DNA from: Candidatus Altimarinota bacterium
Lineage (GTDB): Bacteria; Patescibacteriota; Gracilibacteria; JBDHUY01
Reading direction: 5' to 3'
NCBI GenBank assembly: GCA_039809385.1
Contig: JBDHUY010000016.1
Coordinates: 1-37,929 of the forward strand
Length of the DNA: 37,929 nucleotides
Shown here: one piece after another, positions 2,294 to 24,434 of the stretch
How the letters are laid out: every line of letters starts with the position of its first letter
Numbering within the stretch: position 1 is the first letter of the stretch
Program-made: the position numbers and the translations under genes
The notes under the pieces: model-generated
Told to the model about the DNA's origin: nothing
What the model saw: only the letters and a program-made list of their open reading frames with translations
The model's database searches: none

Positions 2294-2644
2294 TTAAACA
2301 AATAAACCTGCCGCGCCTTCTCGTTTGGCTCGATCAATCCACAAAGCTACTTGCTCGTCTTTCGGCGTATGACCTGTATTTTCGACAAACCGCTTGATCC
2401 GGTAGGAAATCATTTCGCGCAGCGCCGGGCTTACTTTGCGCAAAAAAACATCTTCCGGCTTGGCTTTTCGAATTTTTCGAATATCCCGGGTCAGAATATC
2501 TTCTTCGTCGATGCATATGATCGCCGCCTGGACGCGAATATGCCGAATTCTTTTACAGGTTTCGTAGTCGACGACATAGAAATCGCCGTTAACCATCTCG
2601 ATGACGTACATCTGCTCGTATTGTTTGAGCGTTGCTTGACTCAT
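2294..2644 (-). CDS. Hypothetical protein translationally coupled to the replication initiator
   Basis: ATGA overlap with the rep stop at 2641-2644; 116 aa. Confidence 0.7.
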   Translation of the reverse strand: MSQATLKQYEQMYVIEMVNGDFYVVDYETCKRIRHIRVQAAIICIDEEDILTRDIRKIRKAKPEDVFLRKVSPALREMISYRIKRFVENTGHTPKDEQVALWIDRAKREGAAGLFV

Positions 2645-3459
2645 ACGGTAGTAAATTTATAAATAATAGTTTGAGAAAAATTAGTTTTTGCCTTGATTTT
2701 GAGCTGGTCGTACTGTTCCCGAAACTTCGCGGCCGACAGAATATTTGCTTTCCAGAACTTGTCGTTCTGGCACCAATTCAACAATACTTCCACATCACCG
2801 GGCGGACGGCCGTCGACCCGTAGTACCAGGTCGAACACTTCCGCCCATGCCTGCAGGCCTGCCTCCTGAATTTGGGGATCCTGCCATTTGGGCAGACAGT
2901 CGGGCGAGTTGTGACGCATGAGTTCAAAAAGCAACTGCGCCAGACGATACGGCTCCGACTCTTTTGCAAAAATTTTAAAAACTTTTTTCGGTCTTCTCCT
3001 CCCCCTGGGGGGATTATAGGGGGGTGCACCCCTGTTTAGTTCTTTACTGGTATAGTTCAGGTCGCTCTGTGCACCTACCCCCCCGTCGTCGTCGGCACCT
3101 ACGTTGTTGCTCTCTGCACCTAGGTAGTCGTTTTCGGCATCTACCTTGGCGGATGAATTCGATTGTACGCGAGGATCTTTATAGACGGTATATTTGGTAT
3201 TATCGTACTCTTGGGATCCTTCAACGAGTTTCTTCTGTCGCGAAATGAGGCCGTCCTTTTCGATCTCTTCGAGGTAGCGCAATACGGTCGTGCGATGGAC
3301 CCCCGTCTCTTCGGCGATCGTATTGAGCGAAGGGTAACACTGACCTTCGTTGTTCGAGTGGACCCACAGCCACGCCACGATCGTCTGATATATGGGGTTT
3401 TTACCCCGGACCAGCTGCGCCGGGAATATGCCGAATGTTCCTTGTTCGAGACGTTTCAT
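2641..3459 (-). CDS. Phage replication initiator (N-terminal HTH_36-like winged helix, lambda-O/DnaD-like C-terminus)
   Basis: CYPSLNTIAEETGVHRTTVLRYLEEIEKDGLI HTH; C-terminal DKFWKANILSAAKFREQYDQL motif typical of phage replisome organisers; internal DNA repeats. Confidence 0.85.
   Translation of the reverse strand: MKRLEQGTFGIFPAQLVRGKNPIYQTIVAWLWVHSNNEGQCYPSLNTIAEETGVHRTTVLRYLEEIEKDGLISRQKKLVEGSQEYDNTKYTVYKDPRVQSNSSAKVDAENDYLGAESNNVGADDDGGVGAQSDLNYTSKELNRGAPPYNPPRGRRRPKKVFKIFAKESEPYRLAQLLFELMRHNSPDCLPKWQDPQIQEAGLQAWAEVFDLVLRVDGRPPGDVEVLLNWCQNDKFWKANILSAAKFREQYDQLKIKAKTNFSQTIIYKFTTV
3061..3143. repeat. Iteron-like repeats inside rep (probable lytic origin)
   Basis: GCACCTA at 3071, 3095 and 3116 and GCATCTA at 3137 (spacing 24, 21, 21), with conserved flanks (GTCG/GTTG-N-TCT/TCG). 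Confidence 0.7.
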
Positions 3460-5502: not shown

Positions 5503-5507
5503 CATAG

Positions 5508-5536
5508 ACAATACGCTCTTTTAATACTATAATCAA
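5508..5536 (-). promoter_or_regulatory. Sigma70-type promoter for E3 and the early operon
   Basis: TTGATT-17 nt-TATTGT; arm A begins ~6 nt downstream. Confidence 0.6.
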
Positions 5537-5584
5537 GTTTTTTGTACTGAAATCTACTTTTTACTTTAATTATTAAAGTTTTTT

Positions 5585-5773
5585 ATGCAAGACAAAAACA
5601 AAACGGACAAATCAGACGTGAAACAAATACAGGTTTCCGTTCACAAAGAACTCTACGACCATATCCAGGAAACCAAAAAGAAGTACCTCTTCTCATCCAT
5701 GGCGGACGTACTGAAGGAGGCTTACAGAAGGACGTTTCTGAAAGAAGAGGAGAAAAACGATAAAAAAAGTTAG
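5585..5773 (+). CDS. Ribbon-helix-helix (CopG/Arc-like) transcriptional regulator
   Basis: KQIQVSVHKELYDHIQE...SSMADVLKEAYR matches the RHH beta-strand/helix/helix pattern; divergent from the early promoter. Confidence 0.75.
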   Translation: MQDKNKTDKSDVKQIQVSVHKELYDHIQETKKKYLFSSMADVLKEAYRRTFLKEEEKNDKKS

Positions 5774-7723: not shown

Positions 7724-8020
7724 ATGGGAGAAATAACTGGACGTGTATTGATTCAGGTTAGGGTTAATAAGATCTATCGAGACGAAGCGCGGGAGGTGCT
7801 TGACGATATCGGTATGGATGTAACCACCGCAGTTGAGATATTTCTAAAGACCGTAGCAAAAGAAAGAAAGATTCCTTTCACTCTTCGCGCTACGGATCCG
7901 CATGATTTCTATACCGAACAAGATCGCTTGGATATCCAGGAAGCGGCCCGCGAAATTGAAAAGGGCAATTTTATTACCCAAGAAGATCTGATGAAAAAAA
8001 TTAAAGCCCGTAAATCATGA
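7724..8020 (+). CDS. relB: RelB/DinJ-family antitoxin
   Basis: IQVRVNKIYRDEAREVLDDIGMDVTTAVEIFLKTVAKERKIPF is the RelB/DinJ RHH signature; ATGA overlap with the toxin. Confidence 0.9.
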   Translation: MGEITGRVLIQVRVNKIYRDEAREVLDDIGMDVTTAVEIFLKTVAKERKIPFTLRATDPHDFYTEQDRLDIQEAAREIEKGNFITQEDLMKKIKARKS

Positions 8021-8271
8021 AAGTTATATACTATCCCAAGGCTGAAGATTTTCTCCTCAAACTGACACCTAAAAAGTTTGCCGAAAGGATGATTAATAAA
8101 ATGCAGTGGTTTTCACAACAGGAAAATCCCTTGGACTTTGCCAAGCCACTGACTAATTTGCCGCCGGCAACACATCGATTCAGGATCGGGAATTATCGAG
8201 TTACTTTCAGTATCGATAAGGATCAGATCAATGTCTACAAAATTGATATTCGTAGCAAGATCTACAAATAA
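8017..8271 (+). CDS. relE: RelE/ParE-family toxin
   Basis: MKVIYYPKAEDFLLKL...HRFRIGNYRVTF...VYKIDIRSKIYK RelE signature. Confidence 0.9.
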   Translation: MKVIYYPKAEDFLLKLTPKKFAERMINKMQWFSQQENPLDFAKPLTNLPPATHRFRIGNYRVTFSIDKDQINVYKIDIRSKIYK

Positions 8272-8273
8272 GA

Positions 8274-9287
8274 TCACGCCCCCACTCCCCTCACCTGAAA
8301 ACCAGCAATTCCCGCCGAGGACTCTTCTGGGTTATTTTCTGTTTCGGGATCTTGCAGAATATCCTCAAAACTCATTTCACCATCAATGATCTGTGGTAAA
8401 TACGTTCTAGCCTTCGCATTTATGGCAGTTTCCGAAGAACTTAAAATTGCCGGTACTTCCGTCTTGGCTTTTTCTTTAAGGAATTCCCACTGATCCGGGT
8501 GCTCTTCTATCCAGGTATTCAAGATCTGGACTCGGGCCCTGTTCTGTTCTTCCTCTTTTTCTCTTCGACGTTGTTCCTGCTGTTCTTGCTCTCGTCGTTG
8601 TTGTCGTTCCTCTTCCTGTCGTTTTTCTTCCGGACGGACGTCCCAATTATCCTTGAGGGCTGAAATGATCCAAGCCTCCCGGCTGGTCTTGAACGATTCG
8701 ACCCGCCCTGATGCTTCGATCACTTCCTGAATCCGACCAGTCGGGTAATTATTGATTATTTTCTGCCCCTCTGATTTAGAGAAATGTAAATTCTGAAACA
8801 ACTCTTGTGGTTGTTCTTTTTTTGAGTATTGATCACCTGTTTGTTGTTCGTCGGAAACTGATTTCCGCTCTTGACCGGCAATAGATTTCCGAACAGGAGA
8901 GGAATTAGGTTGCCGATCGGGACCGGCAATAGATTTCCTTTCCATGATCTTGGCTTGGTATTCGGCTACAATGTCTTTTCTGGTTTGGGTAAAATCCAAG
9001 AAATGGTAGATATTTGGCCGGTTGAATCCTTGTCTTTCGATCATGATGAGCTTTTTTTTCTCCAGATCTTTCAAAATATTGCGGACCTGCCGTATACTGA
9101 TCTTCGAGTCTTGGCTTAAAGTATCCTGAGCCGGAAAAGCTTCCGGATTATGCCAGGCATAGCTTAAAAGAAGCATATACATTGCTTTTTCTTGTAGCGA
9201 GAGACTGCCAGTGTAGAGAATTACATTCGGCGTCTGGGCAAAACCGTCTCTGAGGATCGGATTGTGGAATACTGCCTTGTCATTCAT
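8274..9287 (-). CDS. Second replication initiator (HTH_36-type; probable plasmid-state Rep)
   Basis: GFAQTPNVIL...LSLQEKAMYMLLLSYAW...AFPAQDTLS...VRNILKDLEKKKLI...NRPNIY winged helix; WIISALKDNW C-terminal motif; internal iterons. Confidence 0.8.
   Translation of the reverse strand: MNDKAVFHNPILRDGFAQTPNVILYTGSLSLQEKAMYMLLLSYAWHNPEAFPAQDTLSQDSKISIRQVRNILKDLEKKKLIMIERQGFNRPNIYHFLDFTQTRKDIVAEYQAKIMERKSIAGPDRQPNSSPVRKSIAGQERKSVSDEQQTGDQYSKKEQPQELFQNLHFSKSEGQKIINNYPTGRIQEVIEASGRVESFKTSREAWIISALKDNWDVRPEEKRQEEERQQRREQEQQEQRRREKEEEQNRARVQILNTWIEEHPDQWEFLKEKAKTEVPAILSSSETAINAKARTYLPQIIDGEMSFEDILQDPETENNPEESSAGIAGFQVRGVGA
8849..8938. repeat. Four 24-bp-period iterons inside the second rep
   Basis: GACCGGCAATAGATTTCC is identical at 8873-8890 and 8921-8938, with degenerate copies at 8849-8866 and 8897-8914; semi-palindromic GG(A/C)A...TT(T/G)CC core. 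Confidence 0.8.
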
Positions 9288-10138
9288 TTAGATCCAAATA
9301 ACCATTTAAATAAACCTCTCGTATTTTTGTTTTTTTTAACTTCCTCTTTGGGATCTTCCTCTTCATGAATAACTTCCGTTTCTGGTATAATGATCTCCTC
9401 GGGAACTTTCGCGATTGCCTCAAAAATAGAACTCTGAGGAGCTTCTTGATACTCAGCATCTTCCGGCATCTGCAGATCTCCCGAGTCGGTGATCTCTGGA
9501 ATAAGTACCAGCTCCCGGGGATTTAACGCGCCTTCTCTTAGGCGGCGTACGTCTTGATTGTATCGTAAAGAGAGAATCTTGTACTTGCCTCGCAGATCGG
9601 CCAGCTGGGCTGCTGCTACGCTCGCCTCCTTAGCTAGTCGCTCTACTTCGCTGCTATGGTGTCTTTCCGCATCGACCCGGAGATCGTTCAATCTCTGGAT
9701 CTCTGCGTTGATCCGTTGACTTTCCTCTTGGGACTTCTGGAGCTCCCGCTCCATAAAATCATATAAGCGATCGTCGGTTTCTTTCGTCTCGACGGGCATG
9801 GTATTACGTTTTTGCGGTTCAGGTATTACGACCTCGGAAGGTATATTATAAATTGACTGGAAACCAGGTATTACATCACGGAATGCGTCGGGGGTGTATT
9901 CCTCAATTTTTTGGAAATCAAGTCTTACCTTGTCCGGGTGTCGCCGTGCAAATTCTCGAATCGAGCTCGCTGAAATAAAGGTCTGGGGTCGACCATTATA
10001 CTGTTTATCTTTTTTCCTAATCCCGTCGGAATAATAGCTCCATAGAGTCTTCACACTTTTTCCTATAATAGTAGCGGCTTCTGGAATCGCGTAAATATAA
10101 TCATCATCCTCACTCAGGATAGGAACATTTTTAGCCAT
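9284..10138 (-). CDS. HTH + coiled-coil protein with amphipathic C-terminal tail (pSK1 Par/RacA-like architecture; putative partition protein)
   Basis: YAIPEAATIIGKSVKTLWSYY HTH, central coiled coil, acidic disordered region, terminal RGLFKWLFGSK; ATGA-coupled to the second rep. Confidence 0.6.
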   Translation of the reverse strand: MAKNVPILSEDDDYIYAIPEAATIIGKSVKTLWSYYSDGIRKKDKQYNGRPQTFISASSIREFARRHPDKVRLDFQKIEEYTPDAFRDVIPGFQSIYNIPSEVVIPEPQKRNTMPVETKETDDRLYDFMERELQKSQEESQRINAEIQRLNDLRVDAERHHSSEVERLAKEASVAAAQLADLRGKYKILSLRYNQDVRRLREGALNPRELVLIPEITDSGDLQMPEDAEYQEAPQSSIFEAIAKVPEEIIIPETEVIHEEEDPKEEVKKNKNTRGLFKWLFGSK

Positions 10139-10409
10139 ATACGAAACGAATAATATTATGTATAAGAATATTATTCGACCTCTCTGGAATATGCAATACT
10201 ATGAAAGTAAATTGTGCTTACGTCTACTTTCTTTTGTTGCGTACTATTGCCTACATATTCGGCAATAAGCGAAATATGCTAAGTTGAAAAATCAGTATAT
10301 AAGCCAAAATATACGTAATACGTCTTCTTTCTTAATTACCGAAGTTATGTTATACTGCGAAAGAAATAGTAGGAAAAATACTTCACACAACGTAATACTA
10401 AAAACAAAA

Positions 10410-12095: not shown

Positions 12096-12827
12096 TTATT
12101 CTAGTAATTTAAGCCGATCGAGCGCCACTGCAAACCGTTCGCGCGTCAGTATGTTCTCAATTTTTTCGAAAGCCCCGAGTCTCTGCAAAACAATCTCCAG
12201 CATTTCATTCGTTACGATACCTTGGGGATCCTGACCGTTGAAGACTCCTTTTTTTTGGGCTTTTTCCCATGCTACGGAAGCCCATTCGCTGGGCTCGGTT
12301 TTTACAGGTTCTTTTGGGAAAAGGATATTCTCTAATTCCTGCAGAGCGACGGCACCCTCTTTTACGATTTTGTCACGTTTTTCGATATCTGAGATATCGA
12401 TCATTTCCAGCAACCAAGCTGGACACCGTGTATCCCGAATAATCCCCAGCCGGCCTTGACGTGCCGAAGTATCCGGACGGACCCAGTAGCGATCGTGGCC
12501 AAATAGATCTTTCCAGTACCGGCCGGTTACGTCTCCCTGCTTTTTTGCCCATTCGCTCCCATCAAAATAAAACACCCCGCAATCGCTGCCCGGATCCTTG
12601 TCCTCAGCATCGCAATGTAGCTCGATCAGATAGTCTTCGGGCATGATATAGCGGTTTGCATATTCGATGCGCGCGCCCAGCGCAAAAAACGGCACCGTGC
12701 GCATCCCTCTCTTTTTGCATTCATTAACGATGGCGATAGTCACCTCTCGCTCGTTTACTCCGTCTTTGCCCTGAGTCCCCGATTCTCCCGGACCCGAATG
12801 GCCGGCGCTGATCCAGAGGTTTGGCAT
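12096..12827 (-). CDS. Endolysin, N-acetylmuramoyl-L-alanine amidase (Amidase_3) with C-terminal SLH-like domain
   Basis: ISAGH...NERE...IELHCDA...LGIIRDTRCPAWLLEM zinc-amidase motifs; SEWASVAWEKAQKKGVFNG...TRERFAVAL SLH-like; likely start MPNLW at 12827. Confidence 0.9.
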   Translation of the reverse strand: MPNLWISAGHSGPGESGTQGKDGVNEREVTIAIVNECKKRGMRTVPFFALGARIEYANRYIMPEDYLIELHCDAEDKDPGSDCGVFYFDGSEWAKKQGDVTGRYWKDLFGHDRYWVRPDTSARQGRLGIIRDTRCPAWLLEMIDISDIEKRDKIVKEGAVALQELENILFPKEPVKTEPSEWASVAWEKAQKKGVFNGQDPQGIVTNEMLEIVLQRLGAFEKIENILTRERFAVALDRLKLLE

Positions 12828-12886
12828 GGGACAAAATTTAAAAAGTTGGACCGCAAATAGAACAAACCCAATCAAAAGTCAAGATT

Positions 12887-15800
12887 TTATATCCCCCCAA
12901 ATTTTTTCTTGAGCCGCTGATATGATTCTTTCTGCTCCGGCGAAAGCTTGCTATAGATCTTATCGGCTTCTTCTTTGCCATGTTCGGCTTTCACTTTCTG
13001 GATATCGACAAAAATCTGGTATGTATCCTTGTCGGTGGCCTTGGTGTCCTTGGCTTTATCCGCCGCTTTCAGCTTTTTGTAGATATCGCGCTTTTCGGGT
13101 GGGAGTTTGAAATATTCTTCGTCCGCTTTGGCCGAGTCAGTCTCTTTCATTTTTCGAATCCTCTCATACTCAGGGCGAAAAGCTTCCCTCTCATCGCGAT
13201 CTTTCTTTTCGACTTCGTCGACGGCTCGATAGTATTCGTTATCTTTATTGCCGAAACGAAAGGGTAGTTCCAGGCCGGAAAGCGCGGCTTGGGTGGCGGA
13301 AGATTTTCCCGTGGCATAATCGACCCCACTTTTTACATACGTTGGCACGACTAATTGCGAGAGCTCTCCCAGTACATTGGCGATTTGCTTTTCTATTGGT
13401 ATGTCGTTTCCATAGCGATCTTTCCCATAGATCGGCCGTCCGAGATAGTCCGTATTGGCGGCTAGATGGGTAAATACTCCCAACGGTATAGATAGCCGGT
13501 TCGATACCACCCGGAATACTCCCGACGCATCTCCTCGCATCAAGCCGACGGCGACATCCAGCGGGATCCTCAAAAAATCCACCGCGGTACCAAAGGGACG
13601 CATATAGATCGGATCGCCATTCTCGTCTTGGCCGATCTGGATTTCCCACCAGTGTTTAGGATCCTGCTCCCAGAGGTGCTTGCCATGCATAGCGTAGTTG
13701 AGCGTATCCAGTGTCGTGATGCCCAGGATCATGTTCCGCACCATTCTCCGGTAGGGCGCAAACCGCGGATTAAACCAGTTCTTGGGAGTAAATCCCCGAA
13801 TTGCGTTCGCGCCCAAGCGCACATTAGTTTCGGCCCAGTCTGGGGCTAGGATGAAAACCCTGAGAATATTCTGCATCTCGCGACTCCGTCCCCACAAATC
13901 GTAGTTTATACCGCCGAAAAGGTTGTTCGTTACTTCGGCCGCGCGTTCTTTAGCCTCGGGTACTTTGTTTTTCAGAAAATCTTTGTAAATCTCTTCGTAA
14001 GCTTTGAGCTTGAGTGCGGGCAGCATTTTTTCGAAAAGTCCGTTTTCAAACAGATGATTCTGGATCTCTCCTGCCCAGGAAGGAATCAGTTTTATTTTTT
14101 CGGCCAAGTTAAGTTTCATATTCATCGGCGCGTTTTCGAGCTCTTCTTTGGTCATCGACTCCTTGGCGCGCATCGCTTTGACGACTTCCGCATCTTTGTT
14201 GATATCCTTAATCGCTTCTGCCAGTCCCCGTTTGAGACTGGTTACCGCTTCTTTCTCGGTATTCATTTTGAGACCATGCTGAACGGCATCAATCATCAGT
14301 TCGCTTTTGTCCATTTGCAACAGATACTTTTCAGCCTCGGCCGGGCGTACCATATACCACAGACCGGTTAAAGCTTGACCGACGGGATTCTTGGCTGCTA
14401 TTACCGATCGAGCCAAAATATTAAACCCGTGCGCATTCATGGCGGTAAAGGGAACACCCGAAGACAGTACAATATTTTTCATCTTCGACGTGTAGTTGGC
14501 GAGCTTAGCCAGTGGACCCGTGGGATTATCCAGATAGTTATTGATAAACTTGGCCAGCTCGGCCGGGGCCGCATAGCGTCCGGTATAGGTGTGCTGTCCG
14601 GCGCTCGCTTCGCCGACGATCGTGGTAAAGCGCGGAAAACCGTCGCCCAGTGTTTTCCACCCGATAGGCGCGCTCTCTTCGGGTTGGATAAACCCCTCGT
14701 CTGCTAAATACTTAAACAGCGTTCGGTCTGCCAGAGCTTTCTCTAGCGTGCGCTCGTACCATCCGGCGAGCTGCGAGATACTGGTATAGCGAGGTGTGAG
14801 GCCGTATTTTATGCCCATCTGATAGGATTCGATCGTCCGATGAATGGAAAAAGACGGTTTCTGGGTAAGACGGGAAACGATCTCGTTGACCTCCTGCTCG
14901 CTGTTGCGCCATAGTTGCGGCAGGTAGTGTTTCCAGTAGCCCATCTGTATACCGGCATTCGTGGCTTTGCGTCCGGCGGCGTCGAAAAAAGCTTTGACTT
15001 CCTGATACCCGTCGATCGTCCCGGCTTGAAATTCGAGGATCCCTTCCAGTCCTTTTTTGTCGTATTTTTCGAATTCGCGCTTTCTGAGATACCCCGATGT
15101 TTTGGCGGCGGAACGGTTGTTTATCCAGCGGCGCAGTTCTTTCTGCAGATCTTCGGTAAATGCCGCAAAGCCTTTTTTCTTAATATTACCGGCTACCGCC
15201 CAGAGCGCGGCGCGCTGAACCGCTTCGGGAGAGGTATCTATTTCGATGCGCTGCACGCCTTTGAGTTCGTCTCCCGACTGTAATACTTCTCGCAACGCTT
15301 GTTCCCCTTGTTCGATGATTGCTTTCTTCTCTGCATCGGTACGGGTATCAAAGAGTTGTTCTTGTTTGACCTGCAGAGGAATGGTTTCTTCCTGGGCTTT
15401 CTTAAATGTTTCGTCCAGAGAAACCAGCGGTTTTGCTTCGCCGGACGCTTCCACGCCGCTGAGATTCATATCTTCCTGCTGCGGCTGAAATTGTGCGTTA
15501 TAGTCCTGGACATATTCGGTATAGGTCTTGAGCCGATATTGATTGCCCCGGACATGCGCACGCAAAAATTCGGGCATCATGCTTGCCCGGGCGGCGCGGT
15601 ACTTTTCGGCTAGGAGCGTATACTCGTCTTTGGTGAGTAAATGGGGCGGTTCGTTGTCTTGTTCTGGCGTATCAAAGCTCATATCTTCTTGTGGCTCGAT
15701 TGACTTTTGGGTGGATTGTGATATGCTGGTAGCAGGTGATTCACCGACGCCAGAAAGCATAGCGCGCCCCAGCTGGCTTGCAGTCCCTTCCGGAGGGAAA

Positions 15801-17932
15801 GTCGCAAGTGAGGGATGTGGCGCCCCTCCGGTCGAATCATATAAAACCTTCCCTCTCGAGAGAAGGTTTTTTACATACTTCGTTGCCTTGTTCTGGCCGG
15901 TTGGTTCGGGATTGAGGACCGTTACCGTGTAAAAGCCGTTCTCTTTCTTAGCACCGACGATGAAGTAATCATCTTCGTCTACCTTTTTTATAAAATTAAG
16001 ACCTTCGTTTTTTCGCTCGTCAAACCACTGCACGATATAATCGGGCTGATGTATAGTCAATACTGTATTTTCATTTGGAAGGCTGCCATGCTTTTGAATG
16101 ATCTCTTTAGCGTTCTCGTACTTCAATACGAGGGCTTTTTCGCTACCGATCAGTTCTTTCGGAAGGTATGCCAGGATACTAACGGCATCTTCTCCTTTCT
16201 TTACCTTGGCAATGTTTTGGACGAGCGGGGTCAGATTGTCGGGGACTTCGGCTATTGGGGCAATATTGAATACTTTGGTCTTTCCCGCCTGTGGACTGGT
16301 TTCTAGCAGAGGTTCCAACTTTGTAACCTCCTTTGAAGATCCCATGACTCCATGATAAAAATAAGTCAGCTTCTTAACCATCATCGGATTAACCCGACTT
16401 TTCGGACCCGCCAGTGCTTGAAGTTTCATCGGCAAACTTGCATCGTATGCAAGAGCCTTGCGCAAAGGAAAGTAGTAATGGAGAAGATTGCTATATGCTT
16501 GAGTGAATGCGCCGCTTTGATCTTTGCTTGTTGTTCCGGATATTTCGCGGGCTTTCCTTTTTAGGAAAGATTCAAAACCATTCTGACTGCCAAAGTCCTG
16601 CACGAAATCGTCAATACTTTTATAAAGCTGTACTTCCTTAGCCAAAGGTTCTAAATCCTTCGGAACCTTAAAAGCGCCAGAAAAATCTTTGCCGCCGCTG
16701 ACATCTTGAATACTCAATCCGGCATGGGTCTTCATGTACTGGACCGGATTGTTTAAAAATTGCTGGATACTCTCCATCTGCGTTTTCACGATTGTTCGTT
16801 TAGGTGCGGGCAAGGCTAGTCGTGTCAGATCTTGAGCAAAGCCCTCGTATACCTTCCCCGGATCGATCCGGAACTTCTTCGATACTGCCACGATACGGGC
16901 CGTCAAGGGGTTCTCTTTGAGCCACTTTATCGCACCCGTAAGTTCGGCCGATTTGCCGGCCTCTCCTAAACCCACGATATTTTTTTGAATATTTTTCGCC
17001 AGATTCTTGGCCGTTATATCAATCTCTCCGCCGCGAATTCCCAAAAGATCCAGTGATTTATCGGTAATTTTTAGGTTATTCCGAAGTCCCTGTGTCGATC
17101 CTTGTAACGCATCTTTGAGACTGATCCCCATTTTGCTCAATTCGAGCGTGGAAAAAGCAAAAGCGTCTGCCGTTTGCTTATCGCCTTCTTCTCTCGTACT
17201 TTCTATACCCCATTGCTCGTACCCTTCGGGAACCAGCTTCCCCAATGCCTTTTTCATATCGCCAGATCCCATAAAAAGTTCATGCAGCGCGGCCGGGGAG
17301 TAGTATGCTTTGTCCAGGATATCGAGAATCCCCTCCCCTACTTTGCCCACAAGTCCAAAAATAGGATAAATAGCTCGTTCGTTGAATTCTCTCGTAAGTT
17401 GTTCATCTCCTCCCGGCTTACCCATCTCCTGGTACCACCTTTGCTCTGCACGTGCTACGGACATAAAAGATTCCGGTGTTTCATCAAATCCACTAATTGC
17501 TTCCACATGCCCGGACGAATTCCCCGCTCGGGCGCCGAGCAAAGCCCCGCGTACCTCCGGCATGCTTTGTATCTGATCGAGGTACTTCTTTTTGGGTGTC
17601 ACGGGACTTCCGAAAAAGTCGGCAAGCCCCTTGCCGGCATTGTGGGCCAGATCCGATAAAACATCCGGCTCCTTATTCTTTCCTTCCCGCAGAATACTCC
17701 AGGCCTCTTTTTTATTCGGGTTACTGTTCCACCAGTCGTATTGTTGCAGATTCAGACCGCCCACGCTGCGCGCTTTTTCGGCCAACTCCGGAGCCGATAG
17801 AATTCGATTCTTTGGTTTTTCCCTAGACTTTGTCGCATTGCCGGATTTTACCAGATTCTGTAAATAACCGGCACTGTCCTGGACCGACTGGATCGGGTTT
17901 TCAAAAAAAGCAATAAGTGGGTTTTTCGCCAT
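12887..17932 (-). CDS. Very large internal virion/ejection (polyvalent) protein
   Basis: 1681 aa, last gene of the structural module; largely helical; AAEVTNNLFGGINY and DYLGRPIY segments typical of large podovirus core proteins. Confidence 0.7.
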   Translation of the reverse strand: MAKNPLIAFFENPIQSVQDSAGYLQNLVKSGNATKSREKPKNRILSAPELAEKARSVGGLNLQQYDWWNSNPNKKEAWSILREGKNKEPDVLSDLAHNAGKGLADFFGSPVTPKKKYLDQIQSMPEVRGALLGARAGNSSGHVEAISGFDETPESFMSVARAEQRWYQEMGKPGGDEQLTREFNERAIYPIFGLVGKVGEGILDILDKAYYSPAALHELFMGSGDMKKALGKLVPEGYEQWGIESTREEGDKQTADAFAFSTLELSKMGISLKDALQGSTQGLRNNLKITDKSLDLLGIRGGEIDITAKNLAKNIQKNIVGLGEAGKSAELTGAIKWLKENPLTARIVAVSKKFRIDPGKVYEGFAQDLTRLALPAPKRTIVKTQMESIQQFLNNPVQYMKTHAGLSIQDVSGGKDFSGAFKVPKDLEPLAKEVQLYKSIDDFVQDFGSQNGFESFLKRKAREISGTTSKDQSGAFTQAYSNLLHYYFPLRKALAYDASLPMKLQALAGPKSRVNPMMVKKLTYFYHGVMGSSKEVTKLEPLLETSPQAGKTKVFNIAPIAEVPDNLTPLVQNIAKVKKGEDAVSILAYLPKELIGSEKALVLKYENAKEIIQKHGSLPNENTVLTIHQPDYIVQWFDERKNEGLNFIKKVDEDDYFIVGAKKENGFYTVTVLNPEPTGQNKATKYVKNLLSRGKVLYDSTGGAPHPSLATFPPEGTASQLGRAMLSGVGESPATSISQSTQKSIEPQEDMSFDTPEQDNEPPHLLTKDEYTLLAEKYRAARASMMPEFLRAHVRGNQYRLKTYTEYVQDYNAQFQPQQEDMNLSGVEASGEAKPLVSLDETFKKAQEETIPLQVKQEQLFDTRTDAEKKAIIEQGEQALREVLQSGDELKGVQRIEIDTSPEAVQRAALWAVAGNIKKKGFAAFTEDLQKELRRWINNRSAAKTSGYLRKREFEKYDKKGLEGILEFQAGTIDGYQEVKAFFDAAGRKATNAGIQMGYWKHYLPQLWRNSEQEVNEIVSRLTQKPSFSIHRTIESYQMGIKYGLTPRYTSISQLAGWYERTLEKALADRTLFKYLADEGFIQPEESAPIGWKTLGDGFPRFTTIVGEASAGQHTYTGRYAAPAELAKFINNYLDNPTGPLAKLANYTSKMKNIVLSSGVPFTAMNAHGFNILARSVIAAKNPVGQALTGLWYMVRPAEAEKYLLQMDKSELMIDAVQHGLKMNTEKEAVTSLKRGLAEAIKDINKDAEVVKAMRAKESMTKEELENAPMNMKLNLAEKIKLIPSWAGEIQNHLFENGLFEKMLPALKLKAYEEIYKDFLKNKVPEAKERAAEVTNNLFGGINYDLWGRSREMQNILRVFILAPDWAETNVRLGANAIRGFTPKNWFNPRFAPYRRMVRNMILGITTLDTLNYAMHGKHLWEQDPKHWWEIQIGQDENGDPIYMRPFGTAVDFLRIPLDVAVGLMRGDASGVFRVVSNRLSIPLGVFTHLAANTDYLGRPIYGKDRYGNDIPIEKQIANVLGELSQLVVPTYVKSGVDYATGKSSATQAALSGLELPFRFGNKDNEYYRAVDEVEKKDRDEREAFRPEYERIRKMKETDSAKADEEYFKLPPEKRDIYKKLKAADKAKDTKATDKDTYQIFVDIQKVKAEHGKEEADKIYSKLSPEQKESYQRLKKKFGGI

Positions 17933-17950
17933 AAATGGGTCGTTAAAAGA

Positions 17951-20900
17951 CTAAGCTCCTTCGTCCTCATCTTCGTCCAGTTTCTGCCAGACCTCCGGAG
18001 GTAATTCCCAAATGTTTTTCTGGGCATATTCTGGTTTCCATACTCCCGCTTTCAAAAGTTTGACAATCTGTGGATTCGATAACTTTCTCCCTGCTTCGGG
18101 AGTAACGCTCCAGTCGTATTTAGGTTTCTCGAGAAAAGAAGAGAACTTTTCCGCAAAGTCGCGGAAAACACCGGGAGATAGCTTCTCGTATAGTTTTTCG
18201 CTCTCTCGAAACTTTTGCATGATATAATTTTTCACGACGATTTTGTTCGCATTATTAGCATATTCAAATTGATTGGTCAGCTCTTCGGCCACCTCTTCCA
18301 TTGTTTGCTTTTTATCACCCGCAGCCCAGTTCGCGTAGGCCACTGGGATGAACTTATCGACAGACGGATACCCCCCAGTCTTGGTATTTTGCATGCTAGA
18401 CGATACATAATACCCCTTGATCCGCGGATCGTTGATCGAGAGCGTTTCACGCTTGAACCTTCCGCCCGGGACGTTGGTCTGACTGATGGTTATCTTGTCT
18501 TTGGTCACTTGCTCTACATAAAATAGGTGTCCGTAATTGATTCCTGTTTCTGGATCGATCTTGCCGTAGTCCATTATGCCAACTGCACCCGGTAGCGGAT
18601 AACGCGAACCGTTAGCCCCGTTGACCAGACGATCGATTTTATTCTGAAGCGAGAGTAACCCGGACTGCGGGAACCCGGGAATGTTCAGAGAGCGGATATA
18701 TTTAACACAGTTTGATAAAATATCGGGGCTAAGGTTCGTCCCGTCGATCTGTGCCACGCTTCCCGGTACGATAGTATCCGTTCCGTCCAGGTACTGGATG
18801 GCATCGATCTTCCCGGCATTCTTTTGCATCATCATCCAGTCTTGTGCCTTCTGCGCCATTGTGGCGTCACCTTTCATTGTAGCATACATATATGCGCCGA
18901 AAGGGGTGTCGATCATTTGCATCATGGCACTCCGGTCTTTCTCGCTCATAGAGCTGGCCAGAGCGGCTATATCGAGCCCGCTAAAACCGGCCATGGAGAG
19001 GGTGCCTTCGTCTACCATAGAGAGTCCTTTGCCTCCAAAGTTTTCTACCAGGATCTTGATCGCGTCCCGCGCCTGCGTTTGCTGGTCTTTGTTCTCTTCT
19101 CTCTTTTCTTTCTTCAGGGCGATCATCTGGTTAAAATAATCGTTCAGGGCTTCCCGTTTTGCTTTTTGCAGCTCGACAGCGGTCTGCTGATCCTGGGCTC
19201 GCAGTTTCAGCATTGTATCGATGGTGCCGTTGACGGATTCCAAAATACTTTGGGCACTGTCCCGCTGGCGGCGATAGAAGTCGGCGCGTTCCATATAGGC
19301 GCGTTCCTCCTGGCTGACTCGTCCGGCGATCACGCTCATGGGGACCTGTTTGTTCAGCTCGGCATTGCGCTGCTGCCGAAAGGCGGCTTCTTCGTCGGCC
19401 AGCTGCTTATTCCAGTCCTGTACTTCGGTCTGGTACTGCTTGACGTTATAGGCATCCTGCAGCTCTTTATACATCTGTTCGAGTGTTTTGGGCGCCGGAG
19501 CATCGTCCCCCCGGGTAGGAATATCATCTTCGTCGTCTGTACTGCCGTAAGCATCGTTCAGAGCATCATAAAAGTCTTCGATCGAATCATACTGCGTAAT
19601 ATCGAAAGGATCGGTACTCGCCGATCCACTCGGTGCGGAAGACGTTGAGGTATGTTTCTTGTTATACTCGTCCCAGAGGCGATAGGCCTCTACTTGTGCA
19701 GCGGTGGGCTGACCGTTGTTATACAGGGCCATCCACTCCGGATTGCTCGGATCCGGACGGATTACCCCGTCTTTGATGAGACCAAAAAGAAGATTCGCCG
19801 ATAGGCGTCCATATTTATTGTAGGCATCCCACATGGCATAGGCTTGTTTCTGGGCCGAGGTAGCCTCGCCGTTCTGATAGAGCCCCATCCATACCGAATT
19901 AATGCTTGGATCTCTACCGGGCACGAGCATCCCGGCTTTTATTCCTTCAAAAAGTTCCTGGGCACCTCTCCCCTGCCACGGGTTCGCCATACCTCCCGCG
20001 CCGGGGCGATAGAGTATCCCCGTTTCGGGATCGCGGATCGTACGGTTATCCTGATTGGCCATGTCCTGTAAATCTTGGCGGTATCCGGGTTGATTGGTCG
20101 AGCTGTTCTGCTGAGAAGACCCTGGGGCCTCGTAATCGCGTAAATACAAATCCCGTTGTTCTGCGCTCATGGAGTTCCATTTTTCCGGGGTCATCGAAGC
20201 GGGGGCAGGCTTTTTCCCGCTGGCAGGAGGGGGGTTCCCTGCAGGAGTACCGGCAGTTCCTGCGGCAGTATTGTACGGTTGCATGCCGGAAGGCGTCCAC
20301 TGGCCGGAGGTATAGCGCTGCCACATATTCTCTCCGTACTGCGGATCGTCTCTCCGTCCGAATTGCTGTAAAAACTCTTCTTTAGAAATGTTCTGAGTAC
20401 CGGGACTGGGTGGTGTTGCTGCAACGCCGGGGGCGGGCTGGGCGGGAACGGACCCCGATTGTTTGAGAAAATCGGGTTGTCCGTGCTCTTGCGTATACCG
20501 CTCTTTCATTTCATAACTGAGAGTGTTCCACTTCTCCGATGTCATACTACCCGCCGCTTGTTTCTGCTTTTCGGCATCCACGGCACTGACTGGAACCTTG
20601 ACACCGCTCTGTGCGAGGTAGGTATCCAGCTGCTCCGGAGTGGAAAACCTTTGATCGAACGGGGTAAAATTCCCGGATTTGTAGGCCTGATAGCCTTCGT
20701 GTTTGGCGCGTTCATCCCACTTCCACGGATTCTGTAAATAGTCGTTCAATTTATCGATCGCGGCTTTTTGTAAAGCCGGGTGGGCGTTTTTGAATTTTTC
20801 AGATTGCGTAATATCCCCACCCCGCAAGAAATCATCATGTAACGCATCGGTCAGCTCCCACACACTTGGGTTGAAGCGCTTGTTATCATTCTCAAAAGCG

Positions 20901-21415
20901 CTATAACTGCCGTCCCCGGCAGCTTTGAAATTTATCACATTCGGATTGCGTGAGTCGGCGATCGTATTATTGATACCGTAACTATCTAAAAGTCTTTTGG
21001 TTATGGCATTTTTCTGCGCCGAATTCCCTGACAATCCCGTTAGGAAAGATTGTGCCCCCGCCGTATTAGTACCAAAGGACCGATTGATCCAATTCGTGAA
21101 TTCTGCAGTCTGCGTTATATCTTTGCCTTGTCCGTAATTTTGAGCAAACACGTTCTTCTCTTTTGTGTCGCGGATCATCTCTCCCATCCTCTCGTCGGTC
21201 AATTTGCGTACGCCCTGCAAATAGGCCATGTCTTGAAAACTGTTGATATTGTTCGCAATAGCAAAATCCGCCAGGCGTTGGGGATCTTTGACCAGACGAT
21301 CGACTTCTTCGGCTACGGGACGATAGCGCTCTTCTCCCCACCCTTGATGGAGCTTAGTAGGTTTCGCGCTGCGCAGGTAGGTCAGAATATCCTGGGAGTT
21401 GAGATTGTTTGGCAT
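17951..21415 (-). CDS. Internal virion protein with CHAP-type peptidoglycan hydrolase domain
   Basis: NCVKYIR...PGAVGIM...YGHLFYVEQV...ITISQTN (Cys/His CHAP pattern), coiled coil, P/A/G-rich linkers. Confidence 0.7.
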   Translation of the reverse strand: MPNNLNSQDILTYLRSAKPTKLHQGWGEERYRPVAEEVDRLVKDPQRLADFAIANNINSFQDMAYLQGVRKLTDERMGEMIRDTKEKNVFAQNYGQGKDITQTAEFTNWINRSFGTNTAGAQSFLTGLSGNSAQKNAITKRLLDSYGINNTIADSRNPNVINFKAAGDGSYSAFENDNKRFNPSVWELTDALHDDFLRGGDITQSEKFKNAHPALQKAAIDKLNDYLQNPWKWDERAKHEGYQAYKSGNFTPFDQRFSTPEQLDTYLAQSGVKVPVSAVDAEKQKQAAGSMTSEKWNTLSYEMKERYTQEHGQPDFLKQSGSVPAQPAPGVAATPPSPGTQNISKEEFLQQFGRRDDPQYGENMWQRYTSGQWTPSGMQPYNTAAGTAGTPAGNPPPASGKKPAPASMTPEKWNSMSAEQRDLYLRDYEAPGSSQQNSSTNQPGYRQDLQDMANQDNRTIRDPETGILYRPGAGGMANPWQGRGAQELFEGIKAGMLVPGRDPSINSVWMGLYQNGEATSAQKQAYAMWDAYNKYGRLSANLLFGLIKDGVIRPDPSNPEWMALYNNGQPTAAQVEAYRLWDEYNKKHTSTSSAPSGSASTDPFDITQYDSIEDFYDALNDAYGSTDDEDDIPTRGDDAPAPKTLEQMYKELQDAYNVKQYQTEVQDWNKQLADEEAAFRQQRNAELNKQVPMSVIAGRVSQEERAYMERADFYRRQRDSAQSILESVNGTIDTMLKLRAQDQQTAVELQKAKREALNDYFNQMIALKKEKREENKDQQTQARDAIKILVENFGGKGLSMVDEGTLSMAGFSGLDIAALASSMSEKDRSAMMQMIDTPFGAYMYATMKGDATMAQKAQDWMMMQKNAGKIDAIQYLDGTDTIVPGSVAQIDGTNLSPDILSNCVKYIRSLNIPGFPQSGLLSLQNKIDRLVNGANGSRYPLPGAVGIMDYGKIDPETGINYGHLFYVEQVTKDKITISQTNVPGGRFKRETLSINDPRIKGYYVSSSMQNTKTGGYPSVDKFIPVAYANWAAGDKKQTMEEVAEELTNQFEYANNANKIVVKNYIMQKFRESEKLYEKLSPGVFRDFAEKFSSFLEKPKYDWSVTPEAGRKLSNPQIVKLLKAGVWKPEYAQKNIWELPPEVWQKLDEDEDEGA

Positions 21416-21469
21416 AAATACAATGATTTATTTGGTAAATACTCAAAAAATCACCTTTTGCAAGCGATT

Positions 21470-23032
21470 TTATGAAGTTACGTTATTGTCGTTCACCGTT
21501 CCGGTGCCGGCATCGGTAAAGTTGGCGGTGGCATTGTTGAGAGCCACATTGTTCGAAACGATCGTTTTGTCGCAGCCGGATCCGACGATATGAATACCTC
21601 GGCCGCCGTTGGCAATACTTTGATTCCCGTCAATGATCGTATGATCGTTATTGTTTTCGACACGGATCCCATCGCCCGAACATCCATAGACCGAATTGCT
21701 TTGTATAATGTTTTTGTCGCCGTCTGTAATAAGGATGCCGTGATTACGACAGGCATTGACGATATTGCCTTTCATAATACTGCGATTCGACAGAGATCCG
21801 GCCGACTCTATACCGTTGTATCCTCCATTGATCAGGTTATCTATAACGATCGACATATTCCCGGAATCGAGCTTGATGGCTGCCCCGGATCCCGCACTGG
21901 TACCGCGAATATTGTTGCGTCCGACAATACATTTATACCCTACGACATTTACCGCGATAGTTCCTCCGTTTAGGATCTGGTTATCCAGAAACATATTCCC
22001 GGTACCTCCCAGGCTCACGCCAGTGCCTGTAACGTGTTTAATAAAAGAGTTCCGATAGACATTCCCGAAACTATCTTGATCAAAGTTAACAGCCCCCAAA
22101 GTGGTATACTCCGAATAAAAGCCCTCGGCTAAACAATGATGCGTTCCGATGTTATAATTAACCACTAACGCGTTTCCGTTGATATTCCTAAAAGTAGAAT
22201 TGCGGCAATATTCCGTAAAGATATAAGCATTACTGCCAAGGGTCATATTCTCGATACGCACATTCTCTTTGACGGTAGCTATCTTGTAAGCTGCTCCGGA
22301 GATAGATTCTTCGCTGAAATACGCTGCCAAAGTAATGGAAGTATTGCCGCCTACATTGCTGATTTTATAGGCTGTATCGATCGTTCGCCCGGTTTCGCCG
22401 ATGGCGGCGGCGGTAAAAAGATAATCCCCGGCCGCCGCATTGCCGGACCAGCTGGTACCGGTACCGGTGACCGAGGTACTGCCCACGGTAGTGGCAATCG
22501 TACCTGTACCGTACTTGAACGTACCCTTTATGTTAATATTGCAATTTTGCAAAACAACTCCGTCCCGGGATTCGCCGATCACTTCCGTCCCCGTCTCGAT
22601 CGTTATATTGACCGATCCTTCATTATATACGCCGTTTCTGATAAATATTCGTTTTTTCCCGGCCGTAATAGCCGCGCCCAGAGTCGTGTAGTGCCCCATG
22701 CCGCTCGCGTCCACGATCGCTTCAAAAACCTGATAACCGGCAATAACCGCGTTGCGACAGTACAGATTACCTCGCATATCGACGGCAAAGGCATTTTGCA
22801 ATGCGTCAGCAAACGTATTTTTTCCCAGCCACAAGCCTTCGCGATTAGCATGGAATGCCACGTCGCCGGCACCGACTTGGACCTCTTTCAGGTTGCGCAG
22901 GTATTGCAAAATATACGGACCGATCTGAGACATGATATTCGGATCTAGGGATGTTCCGGCCTCTTGTTGTGGGCCTGCTCCCCCCTCCTGCATAGCTTGA
23001 GGATAGGGCAGATCGGTAAAAAAGTTATTCAT
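21470..23032 (-). CDS. Tail spike/fibre with right-handed parallel beta-helix (pectin-lyase/NosD-like)
   Basis: IVDASGMGHYTTLGAAI...IFIRNGVYNE...IGESRDGVVL followed by Asn-ladder repeats (GNIV, SNSV, GNQS, NNVA). Confidence 0.8.
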   Translation of the reverse strand: MNNFFTDLPYPQAMQEGGAGPQQEAGTSLDPNIMSQIGPYILQYLRNLKEVQVGAGDVAFHANREGLWLGKNTFADALQNAFAVDMRGNLYCRNAVIAGYQVFEAIVDASGMGHYTTLGAAITAGKKRIFIRNGVYNEGSVNITIETGTEVIGESRDGVVLQNCNINIKGTFKYGTGTIATTVGSTSVTGTGTSWSGNAAAGDYLFTAAAIGETGRTIDTAYKISNVGGNTSITLAAYFSEESISGAAYKIATVKENVRIENMTLGSNAYIFTEYCRNSTFRNINGNALVVNYNIGTHHCLAEGFYSEYTTLGAVNFDQDSFGNVYRNSFIKHVTGTGVSLGGTGNMFLDNQILNGGTIAVNVVGYKCIVGRNNIRGTSAGSGAAIKLDSGNMSIVIDNLINGGYNGIESAGSLSNRSIMKGNIVNACRNHGILITDGDKNIIQSNSVYGCSGDGIRVENNNDHTIIDGNQSIANGGRGIHIVGSGCDKTIVSNNVALNNATANFTDAGTGTVNDNNVTS

Positions 23033-23033
23033 A

Positions 23034-24434
23034 TTACGTAATGGAAATTTCTACAGATTCAATCTCAGGAGCATTGTTGGCGTTCACTGCAGCCGCGATC
23101 TTGAACTGAACCGTATTCGCCTCGAGTATTTTGACTTTGGCGTATTTGCAGAGTCTCTTAGAGTCATTCACCAAATCGACGTTGGCATAAGCGGCATAGT
23201 TGACACTTTTTTGCAGCGTAATATCGCAATTAGCCGGAATAGAACGATAATTGATCTTGATATCGATAGTCTTTTGAATCGAGCGCGCCATATCGATCAC
23301 TCGTGTCTCGAAATAGGCGCTGGCATATTTGTTCGACCAATCGATTTTATCCACCCCGTAATTGCTGCCATCCTTCCAAGCCACCAAAAAGTCGTCGCCG
23401 ACCGCCTCGATCGCGCCGATCTCGATACTGCTCGTGAGATTTTGTGAAATGATATAGTCGAGCGACAATACCCGGGGGTAGTTTCTGCTATAGCTTCCGT
23501 AGCTGTAAACTCCCTGCAGAGCCGGATTCCCCGCAATATTTGACAACCCGAACAACGTTCTTTTCTGAAACAATGCCGCGGCGTTTTTGTGGACCGTTGC
23601 TTTTTTGGTACTATCCCAAGCCCCCGGCAAGCGCATAAATTGCTCTAAGCGAGCTCCCTCGTAGAGATAGAAAAAACCTTTGGTGCCGGCCGACAGGAGG
23701 ATTGTATTGTCCATGGGAATAAAACCGTTAATCCCTACCTCGGGAACATCGTCCTCGTTCGTCCAGCTCTCCGACCAGGTATTCCAGCGAATAATACGAC
23801 ACATGTTCACATTGTCGTTGATATAGGTGCCGATCAAAAGATCGTTGGTATCGATCCAAAGGGATTTGATCCGATAAGTACTGGGAATATCCAAAGCATT
23901 CCCGGTAAAAACATTCGATTCGTCGACCTGGGCAATATAGTTCTTGTCTCCGATATACAAGACGCCGTTCAATAAAAATATCGGATGAAACAAAGCGTCG
24001 GTATTCATGAAGGTAGCCCAGCTGTCGTTGCGGGTCGACCAGGCAGTGCCGATCTGCCAGCGTCCCAAGCGCGACTGCATGGAGTAGTACAGATAGCCAT
24101 TGTGTTCGGCAGCATCGAGTATGGATGCTGCTCCGGCCGCTGGCGCGGCAGTAGCTTCCAGCGTATAAGTACCTCCCGAAGTACGGGACCAGATCTTGCC
24201 GCTGGTCGAAGAAAAGAGATAACTTTTCCCGTCGCTGCAGGATCGAATTGTCTTGACCAGAGCATCGATCGTACTGCCGCTCTCTTTGGTTAGTTTTTGG
24301 TGTACTTTGAGCACTCCGGGTTCGGAATGCAGATCAAAACCGACGATCGTGGCCAGAGAGTTCTGTACTCCCTGGTACCGACTGTCGGCCAGACCTCCCA
24401 AGTTAAAGTTTTTCAGCTCAATAGTGCTTGGCAT
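23034..24434 (-). CDS. Tail tubular/stabilisation protein (beta-propeller-like)
   Basis: 466 aa, repeated short beta-strand blades (LYYS, LYIG, LLIG, ILLS, FLVA), podovirus gene position. Confidence 0.6.
   Translation of the reverse strand: MPSTIELKNFNLGGLADSRYQGVQNSLATIVGFDLHSEPGVLKVHQKLTKESGSTIDALVKTIRSCSDGKSYLFSSTSGKIWSRTSGGTYTLEATAAPAAGAASILDAAEHNGYLYYSMQSRLGRWQIGTAWSTRNDSWATFMNTDALFHPIFLLNGVLYIGDKNYIAQVDESNVFTGNALDIPSTYRIKSLWIDTNDLLIGTYINDNVNMCRIIRWNTWSESWTNEDDVPEVGINGFIPMDNTILLSAGTKGFFYLYEGARLEQFMRLPGAWDSTKKATVHKNAAALFQKRTLFGLSNIAGNPALQGVYSYGSYSRNYPRVLSLDYIISQNLTSSIEIGAIEAVGDDFLVAWKDGSNYGVDKIDWSNKYASAYFETRVIDMARSIQKTIDIKINYRSIPANCDITLQKSVNYAAYANVDLVNDSKRLCKYAKVKILEANTVQFKIAAAVNANNAPEIESVEISIT

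Follow-up and report, generated by a model that had tools for sequence, protein, structure and literature searches.

A Par/RocS-like gene coupled to a second replication initiator in a candidate phage-plasmid from a Patescibacteria-like bin

The stretch of DNA analysed here is a single contig of a Candidatus Altimarinota bacterium (JBDHUY010000016.1, assembly GCA_039809385.1), taken in full at 37,929 nt and referred to below as the window. It belongs to a bin of 26 contigs and 1.87 Mb that is rated 95% complete. The window carries the virion, packaging and lysis genes of a phage, together with a compact block in which a toxin–antitoxin (TA) pair, relBE, lies tail-to-tail with a two-gene operon. 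The operon encodes a replication initiator, Rep2, the second in the window, and a protein here called P284, which resembles the plasmid protein Par and the chromosome segregation protein RocS. The features of this block are listed below (GC, guanine-plus-cytosine content; HTH, helix-turn-helix).

7724..8020, plus strand: relB antitoxin, 98 aa (PF04221, 2.2e-8, 34.3 bits against a cut-off of 22.4; phrog_2737, 6e-12)
8017..8271, plus strand: relE/parE-like toxin, 84 aa (phrog_1213 RelE-like toxin, 3.5e-11)
8274..9287, minus strand: rep2, second replication initiator, 337 aa (HTH_36, 5.8e-9; DnaD_N, 6e-6; phrog_270, 3e-9)
8745..8852, no strand: AT-rich stretch beside the rep2 iterons, candidate unwinding element (GC 32.4% against 45.1% for the gene)
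8853..8938, no strand: four 14-nt iterons in rep2 (starts 8853, 8877, 8901 and 8925; 24-nt spacing; codons 117–145 of 337)
9284..10138, minus strand: P284, Par/RocS-like gene (winged HTH, coiled coil, DUF536-like segment, basic-hydrophobic tail), in an operon with rep2
10147..10177, no strand: perfect 11-bp inverted repeat, candidate operator or binding site, 9–39 nt upstream of the P284 start

P284 lies directly upstream of rep2 and overlaps its start by 4 nt. Gene families were assigned by Pfam and PHROG scans of the 50 open reading frames (ORFs) in the window, and in these P284 has no family of its own; a word-indexed search gave only one close relative (two proteins including P284). A P284 homologue at 63% is located on a contig of 3.9 kb. 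A HMMER scan of 1.84 billion representatives returned 10 proteins at E≤1e-3 and 6 at E≤1e-10, the query included. Along an alignment of 11 sequences, the family reads as an HTH N-domain beginning DDYIY, a KYTPD motif, the coiled coil, an NRDxxRLxxGxL...LSxLP block, a variable linker that is acidic or proline-rich, and the tail. For the tail, P284 has TRGLFKWLFGSK, against a family consensus of KKRGLFxRLFG; by our reading of the alignment, 9 of the 11 members carry this Par-like motif and the other two end in a hydrophobic tail. HTH_17 is found in six of the 11 (best E 3.2e-5), the protein of the window not being among them. AlphaFold2 (AF2) with the 11-sequence alignment models residues 11–95 as a strand, two helices, a hairpin and a helix at a predicted local distance difference test score (pLDDT) of ~90, followed by one long helix at 119–201 (pLDDT 86–97 over 121–180 and 84–87 over 181–210, in 10-residue blocks); an earlier model from a two-sequence alignment was poor (pLDDT 55.7). 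The coiled coil is 80 residues in length. The earlier note on this DNA, made from the letters alone, had described an HTH, coiled-coil and amphipathic-tail gene coupled to a second initiator, and the family alignment, the AF2 model and the 4-nt overlap all agree with that description.

Other searches with P284 were less informative. No Foldseek match in PDB reached E≤1e-3, the weak ones (E>0.1) being winged HTH domains of the Xis, MerR and BldC types. The wide VIA-align search returned coiled-coil matches only, an Atlas search only generic HTH_17/MerR clusters (~0.90), and a profile search of PDB sequences did not retrieve Par or RacA. A hydrophobic-moment calculation singled out neither the C-terminal tail of P284 nor the known Par tail. 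The P284 alignment has no relatives in IMG/VR, and among 400 genomes of the host's class its profile found only short N-terminal matches (≤26 bits), in 12.

Among the closest known systems is the par-rep replicon of the Staphylococcus plasmid pSK1, in which Par (DUF536) is encoded beside a theta initiator of the RepA_N type, as a single-protein Par-type gene is in the window. pSK1 Par has 245 aa, with DUF536 at residues 116–157 (E 3.2e-6) and the end KKGFWSRLFGG. When the P284 family was aligned with pSK1 Par alone by hhalign, P284 178–225 matched Par 127–174 (probability 77%, E 2e-5); with a 15-sequence Par alignment, P284 179–210 matched Par 128–159 (89.6%, E 1.9e-6). In both cases the aligned Par segment is the DUF536 core. 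Par and P284 also follow one order, from an N-terminal HTH through a coiled coil, a DUF536-like core and a low-complexity linker to a KKGF/LxxRLFG tail. P284 is certainly an architectural match to Par and RocS, and because the alignment to the DUF536 core, the domain order and the tail motif coincide, it is probably a distant relative of both; its tail is a putative MinD/Par-like membrane-binding amphipathic helix. The likeness to pSK1 Par proposed in the earlier note has thus held up under profile comparison and in the tail itself. The two systems differ in that par and rep form one operon here and are divergent in pSK1, that the N-domain of P284 is of the HTH_17 type, that the carrier is a phage, and that no repeat array precedes P284; overall the similarity is remote.

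RocS of Streptococcus pneumoniae has, as excerpted from its description, the same sequence of winged HTH, coiled coil, DUF536 and MinD-like amphipathic helix (PMC11500499). The same excerpts state that RocS tethers DNA to the membrane, that membrane binding requires oligomerisation, that pSK1 Par has DUF536 and a tail near-identical to that of RocS, and that the mechanism of the Par/RocS family is still open (PMC11500499). RocS is encoded on the chromosome, which it segregates, whereas P284 is borne by a mobile element and coupled to an initiator, and the relationship between the two runs only through the Par comparison.

Rep2 was called from its HTH_36 domain, which scores 36.1 bits and so exceeds the Pfam cut-off of 25; DnaD_N lies just under its cut-off (26.8 bits against 27) and the PHROG matches are weak. 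Its relatives among 5.8 billion proteins, by word-indexed search, comprise itself, one protein at 87%, found on a contig of 8.8 kb, and one at 38%. Scans of IMG/VR found no relatives, and among 60 related genomes there was none, the sole other match being at chance level (19 bits). A Rep2-family profile aligns with residues 31–113 of pSK1 RepA (hhalign probability 65%, E 5.9e-5), the N-domains of both carrying the motif ERQGxNxPN-IY, and phmmer gives weak matches (E 0.029–0.4) to the solved RepA_N initiators in PDB. The RepA_N Pfam model has no match to Rep2 in the Pfam scan. By these comparisons Rep2 appears to resemble plasmid RepA_N initiators. The placement of its iterons is also plasmid-like: the N-domain of pSK41 Rep is described as binding four Rep boxes centrally in rep, the central linker being encoded by the origin, and the N-domain of the staphylococcal pPR9 Rep as pfam13730, that is HTH_36, as far as the excerpts of that source go (PMC5703833). 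Rep2 has four boxes at the corresponding central place, like pSK41 Rep, and an HTH_36 domain, like pPR9 Rep.

The early operon of the window encodes the other initiator, Rep1, whose features are the following.

2641..3459, minus strand: rep1, phage O-/DnaD-like initiator, 272 aa (HTH_36, 2.8e-11; phrog_2514, 1.1e-29; phrog_391, 4e-27)
3061..3143, no strand: four 17-nt iterons in rep1 (starts 3061, 3085, 3106 and 3127; spacing 24, 21 and 21)
2955–2995, no strand: AT-rich stretch following the rep1 iterons (GC 29% against 50% for the gene)

Rep1 has strong matches to the 'DnaD-like helicase loader' and 'O-like' phage PHROGs. In tblastn searches it retrieved 467 phage records, of which 75 cover ≥80% of the protein, as well as 78 plasmid records, against one phage record and five plasmid records, all weak, for Rep2. 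The two proteins have the HTH alone in common (BLASTP 18% identity, E 0.002; hhalign probability 39%). In each gene the clustering and regular spacing of the iterons are plain in the sequence. The 14-mers of rep2 give seven strand matches where 1.02 are expected, a number reached in none of 100 shuffles, and the 17-mers of rep1 give four where 0.07 are expected (again 0/100 shuffles); the patterns were taken from the copies themselves, and these statistics are hence partly circular. Two distinct HTH initiators, each with its own iteron family, had been proposed beforehand, and the description is accurate. In phage lambda, four iterons and an AT-rich region lie inside the initiator gene O. Both Rep1 and Rep2 share this arrangement, Rep1 additionally matching O-like PHROGs, but unlike in lambda no P-like helicase loader gene was recognised beside either.

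The division of labour that this contrast suggests is that of P1, a phage of ~94 kb whose plasmid replicon is separate from its lytic one and which carries an addiction module. The P1-like two-replicon idea of the earlier note fits the contrast between an initiator with 467 phage records and one with a single phage record, and the addiction module has its counterpart in relBE. Cluster A actinophages are a second parallel, some members being reported to lack integration cassettes and to have partition genes, in the excerpted text (PMC7969092). The partition systems of P1 and cluster A are of the ParAB type, whereas the 37.7 kb genome described here has a single-protein Par/RocS-like gene and no ParA was found in it.

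P284 and Rep2 recur together outside this phage. A metagenome scan with a sub-alignment of the P284 family yielded five loci (L181–L185, 58–65% GC), and in all five a Rep2 homologue begins within 4 nt after the P284 homologue. Two of the loci are 99.86% identical, so that four are independent. In these four the rep genes hold 4–5 iterons with a 24-nt period at nt 470–590, followed by an AT-rich run; about four initiator boxes placed centrally in the rep gene are thus found in Rep2 and in four homologues. Of 31 copies of the sequence TTCCAAC/GTTGGAA, 21 cluster in the 320 nt upstream of the par-like gene (5/5, 4/7, 5/9 and 7/10 by locus), a pattern reminiscent of the repeats arrayed ahead of par in pSK1. 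The flanks encode Replic_Relax and an 846-aa TraG/TrwB/FtsK-like protein, with an Xis-like HTH_17 gene in all five loci; after the cassette come housekeeping or cargo genes, encoding PurH, polyprenyl synthase, a transporter of the OPT type, an esterase and a TIR protein. No window phage gene other than P284 and Rep2 has a match in the five loci, and PF00589 was absent among the 20 ORFs scanned there. From its place beside conjugation-type genes, with no other phage genes, we take the P284–Rep2 pair to be a maintenance module of non-phage mobile elements. Two side observations concern these elements: they abut purH in two different contigs, and a family-less 388-aa ORF between rep and purH (L183:12253–13419) is frameshifted in the near-identical L182.

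This distribution raises the question of whether relBE, rep2 and P284 are simply a captured or selfish piece of a plasmid or integrative and conjugative element, playing no part in the life cycle of the phage and perhaps inactive. The closest homologues do lie in conjugative-element-like loci, Rep2 and P284 are near-orphans (three and two proteins in the word-indexed search) and the cassette is absent from the phage relatives. Against such a relic, none of the four genes is disrupted and their starts and stops overlap, the iterons are likewise intact, and in GC (44–46%) and tetranucleotide use the genes agree with the remainder of the phage. The same arrangement is moreover found at >99% identity in runs of two studies, and we regard a captured piece as improbable.

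The recurrence in independent data also bears on the integrity of the contig. The region is present in five runs of two studies labelled activated sludge or wastewater, and contigs from independent runs span 7100–10799, 8457–10790 and 8383–10867, each at >99% identity, so that the cassette is not an assembly chimera. A reassigned genetic code (25/4) was ruled out, the ORFs closing and overlapping normally under table 11. The ends of the window coincide as follows.

37693..37929, no strand: end overlap with 1–238 (121 nt exact, then a variant allele)

Positions 1–121 are repeated letter for letter at 37693–37813, and the final 116–117 nt form a diverged copy of 122–238 at ~74% identity. The sequence is hence self-closing, and its unit, once the end overlap is removed, measures 37,692 bp. 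The assembly passed once round the unit and then continued into a second allele of a small gene (57–380). Circularity, as previously claimed for this genome, is supported to this extent, the overlap fitting a circular and a circularly permuted genome alike. The gene at 57–380, the last of the early operon, encodes a family-less protein of 107 aa and has at least two diverged alleles. In a contig of the independent run X3, 137–317 is swapped for 293 other letters, which confirms the gene as polymorphic; 57–380 and 37814–37929 may represent a hypervariable locus.

Enzymes of integration are missing from the contig. A six-frame HMM search of the whole bin at E≤1 found no tyrosine recombinase (PF00589), serine recombinase (PF00239) or rve transposase (PF00665) on it, in keeping with the Pfam and PHROG scans of the 50 ORFs, which found no recombinases. 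The same search gave two, three and one matches to these families elsewhere in the bin, showing that the method works and that the phage is without these enzymes. Of 14 ParA/MinD-type matches in the bin at E≤1, none falls on the contig. Compared with the other 25 contigs it has no exact match >19 nt, the tblastx comparison agrees, and the three short matches to contig C2 could not be extended, which leaves neither an att-like (attachment site) identity nor a spacer match or candidate. The earlier note was accordingly right that no tyrosine or serine recombinase can be recognised. Phage-plasmids, as screened by Pfeifer et al. 2021, need no integrase and often have none (PMC7969092). As a pointer to the plasmid state the absence is not specific here, since 0/5 structurally related phages carry an integrase: the lack is a lineage trait and not by itself evidence for plasmid life.

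Integration could nevertheless proceed through an unrecognised recombinase or the host Xer system, as in CTXphi, with Rep2 acting only after excision as in actinomycete integrative elements. In favour of such a temperate, integrating phage, the cassette relatives adjoin chromosomal genes and have an Xis-like HTH_17 gene nearby, and several early ORFs have no family. Those ORFs are at most 183 aa, however, no recombinase family appears even at E≤1, the longest exact matches to the rest of the bin leave no att-like identity, and the assembled contig is closed, with host sequence on neither side. We consider integration highly improbable.

The TA pair closes an operon that runs divergently from the early genes.

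5585–8271, plus strand: plus-strand operon (62-aa gene, two lipoprotein-like genes, relB, relE), divergent from the early operon
5505..5773, plus strand: best promoter-like site (5505–5533, 11/12 promoter match) and the 62-aa gene heading the operon

RelB is followed by a RelE/ParE-fold toxin gene overlapping it by 4 nt, the organisation of a type II TA system; the toxin scores 18.1 bits against PF05016 (ParE_toxin), under the cut-off of 23. The relE gene ends at 8271 and the convergent rep2 at 8274, which bears out the tail-to-tail placement described earlier. The 62-aa gene has no family and a PDB search with it returned nothing; it has a ribbon-helix-helix look by our reading of the letters. 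The lipoprotein-like genes at 5830–7174 encode 343 aa with a Cys-rich C-terminus and 113 aa, the latter with a signal/lipobox-like start, a coiled coil and weak spanin-like PHROG matches.

The remainder of the window is phage in character.

12096..37410, minus strand: lysis and virion block with endolysin, 1681-aa and 1154-aa proteins, fibre, capsid, portal, TerL and TerS (phrog_435, phrog_28473, phrog_1357, phrog_1216, phrog_10250, phrog_51)
~5536 down to 57, minus strand: early operon with DNA methyltransferase, single-stranded DNA-binding protein (SSB) and Rep1 (Pfam/PHROG)
3606–4001, minus strand: SSB, in the early operon (PF00436, 1.5e-34)
4020–4664, minus strand: N6/N4 DNA methyltransferase, in the early operon (PF01555, 2.1e-19)
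10284–11702, plus strand: three genes without any family, divergent from P284
11718–11793, minus strand: tRNA-Met (CAT), between the lysis genes and the family-less plus-strand genes

TerS, TerL, portal, major head protein, fibre and endolysin together account for packaging, virion and lysis, the major head protein matching phrog_1357 at 3e-66; no tube, sheath or tape-measure family was found in the Pfam and PHROG scans, the one result that bears on the podovirus-like form suggested in the earlier note. Relatives of the capsid protein number 91 in IMG/VR, with none among the genome contigs searched. Two near-complete IMG/VR relatives, of 35.4 kb and 38.1 kb with terminal repeats, share only the virion module with the window (28–54% identity) and nothing of its 1–12.9 kb region. 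In none of five structurally related IMG/VR phages was PF00589, HTH_36, a family-A DNA polymerase or ParA found, and a complete (100%) relative with terminal repeats has an almost unidirectional gene order. What is distinctive of the present phage is a replacement early region, in which a divergent, switch-like promoter region is joined by the par-rep cassette and the TA pair.

Several observations on the remaining genes stand apart from this argument. The 1681-aa and 1154-aa proteins of the virion block (12887–21415, minus strand) have no PHROG family, and related IMG/VR phages contain weak relatives of the 1154-aa protein only. A contig of run X4 links 15213 to 19359 through 24 other letters at higher depth (23.6). 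One of the family-less genes at 10284–11702 has a product of 244 aa in which two predicted membrane helices accompany a soluble C-domain. A zinc-ribbon-like 61-aa protein (397–582, minus strand), encoded close to where the early operon ends, has weak matches below cut-off to Anti-TRAP and DnaJ CXXCXGXG. The tRNA-Met has no similar sequence elsewhere in the bin (blastn, E≤1e-5, word size 11).

The relatives bring into view a phage that is virulent, or at least forms no plasmid, in which Rep2 and P284 organise lytic replication at the membrane as a second origin and an anchor, and RelBE serves anti-defence or host takeover. A DNA–membrane anchor in lytic replication has a functional parallel in phi29 p16.7. 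The structural relatives, without integrase and almost unidirectional like virulent podophages, speak for such a life cycle, as does the failure to find a repressor, and the architecture of P284 indicates a DNA–membrane tether only and not partitioning. Yet Rep1 and SSB already form a standard phage replication module, the P284–Rep2 pair stands in non-phage mobile elements at 5/5 loci, the integrase-less relatives also lack the cassette, and a plus-strand operon that diverges from the early genes and encodes lipoproteins together with a TA pair would be unusual in a strictly lytic phage. We judge a virulent life cycle rather unlikely on balance, although it is the strongest rival to a phage-plasmid.

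The most likely explanation, to which we give about an even chance, is that the element is a temperate tailed phage kept as a circular low-copy plasmid and not integrating. In such a phage-plasmid, Rep1, encoded in the early operon with SSB, would fire its in-gene origin for lytic amplification. Rep2 would bind its four 24-nt-spaced iterons mid-gene, melt the adjacent AT-rich stretch and recruit the host replisome for plasmid replication once per cycle, like pSK41-type RepA_N initiators. P284 would dimerise through its coiled coil and bind phage DNA through its winged HTH, the inverted repeat at 10147–10177 being a candidate site, while its C-terminal MinD/Par-like helix would attach to the membrane and so tether and distribute copies, as proposed for pSK1 Par and RocS. 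RelBE would kill or arrest cells that lose the element, and the plus-strand operon at 5585–8271, ending in relBE, would constitute the gene set of the carrier state, in which the lipoprotein-like genes may have surface or exclusion functions. Every observation that the earlier note made on the sequence is borne out. Its phage-plasmid interpretation gains from the contrast of the two replicons and from the Par likeness, the missing integrase not being specific to a plasmid state.

A number of points weigh against a phage-plasmid. We infer the plasmid state from indirect evidence only. As far as the excerpts of that source extend, partition genes occur also in phages thought to be virulent, the caveat raised for BigBertha (PMC7969092), and with an integrase in 0/5 related IMG/VR phages the lineage may simply be virulent. 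No CI/Cro/XRE-type repressor or antirepressor was recognised in the Pfam and PHROG scans or in a Pfam scan of 10 small ORFs. The match of P284 to Par spans only 32–48 columns. The Pfam DUF536 (PF04394) HMM has no match to P284 at E≤0.1, for which reason P284 is not filed as a DUF536 member, and PF04394 is absent among the matches listed (25 of 45 families) for the 11 family members. Upstream of P284 the window has one inverted repeat only in place of an array. The cassette copies elsewhere appear to be integrated or to border a conjugative element, and none of them is a proven plasmid.

The link to the host is likewise one of binning only, itself based on the same composition signal. The tetranucleotide correlation of the contig with the rest of the bin is 0.964, against 0.954–0.979 for the other nine contigs of 18.6–39.2 kb (C15, C17–C25), and its GC is 46.8% against 43–47% in the bin. 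Sampled genomes of the same class measure 0.7–2.0 Mb, so that the bin is large for its class. Ribosomal protein L30, the loss of which is a Patescibacteria trait, was not found in the 95%-complete bin, and the best CbiA (ParA/MinD-type) match in the whole bin reaches only 25.8 bits. The EF-Tu of the bin matches many phyla at 70–77% and so gives no guidance on the host. These features of composition, genome size and L30 are consistent with a Patescibacteria host without being proof of it.

In a wider frame, it is possible, though we regard it as doubtful, that P284–Rep2 represents an ancient portable par-rep cassette, combining a Par/RocS-type tether with a RepA_N-like initiator and its in-gene origin, that has spread among very distant hosts, being carried by plasmids of Firmicutes, by conjugative elements of high GC and by this phage, which it would enable to live as a low-copy plasmid in an ultra-small Patescibacteria-like bacterium. 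Among the papers listed in searches of open-access literature, supplementary files being outside their scope, there was no report of a phage-plasmid in Patescibacteria and none of a DUF536-type system in a phage. If the interpretation is true, the element would be the first phage-plasmid proposed for the Patescibacteria-like group and the first with a Par/RocS-type gene instead of ParAB. Known phage-plasmid partition is by ParAB, ParMR or TubZR, and a single-protein Par/RocS-like tether coupled to an initiator would solve the problem in a new way. The pSK1 Par/RocS segregation family would then reach far beyond Firmicutes, with the conserved P284–Rep2 operon as a compact mini-replicon of ~2 kb whose origin lies in the gene. 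Provided that the host assignment holds, the element would offer a rare opportunity to learn how mobile elements are maintained in uncultured bacteria with small genomes.

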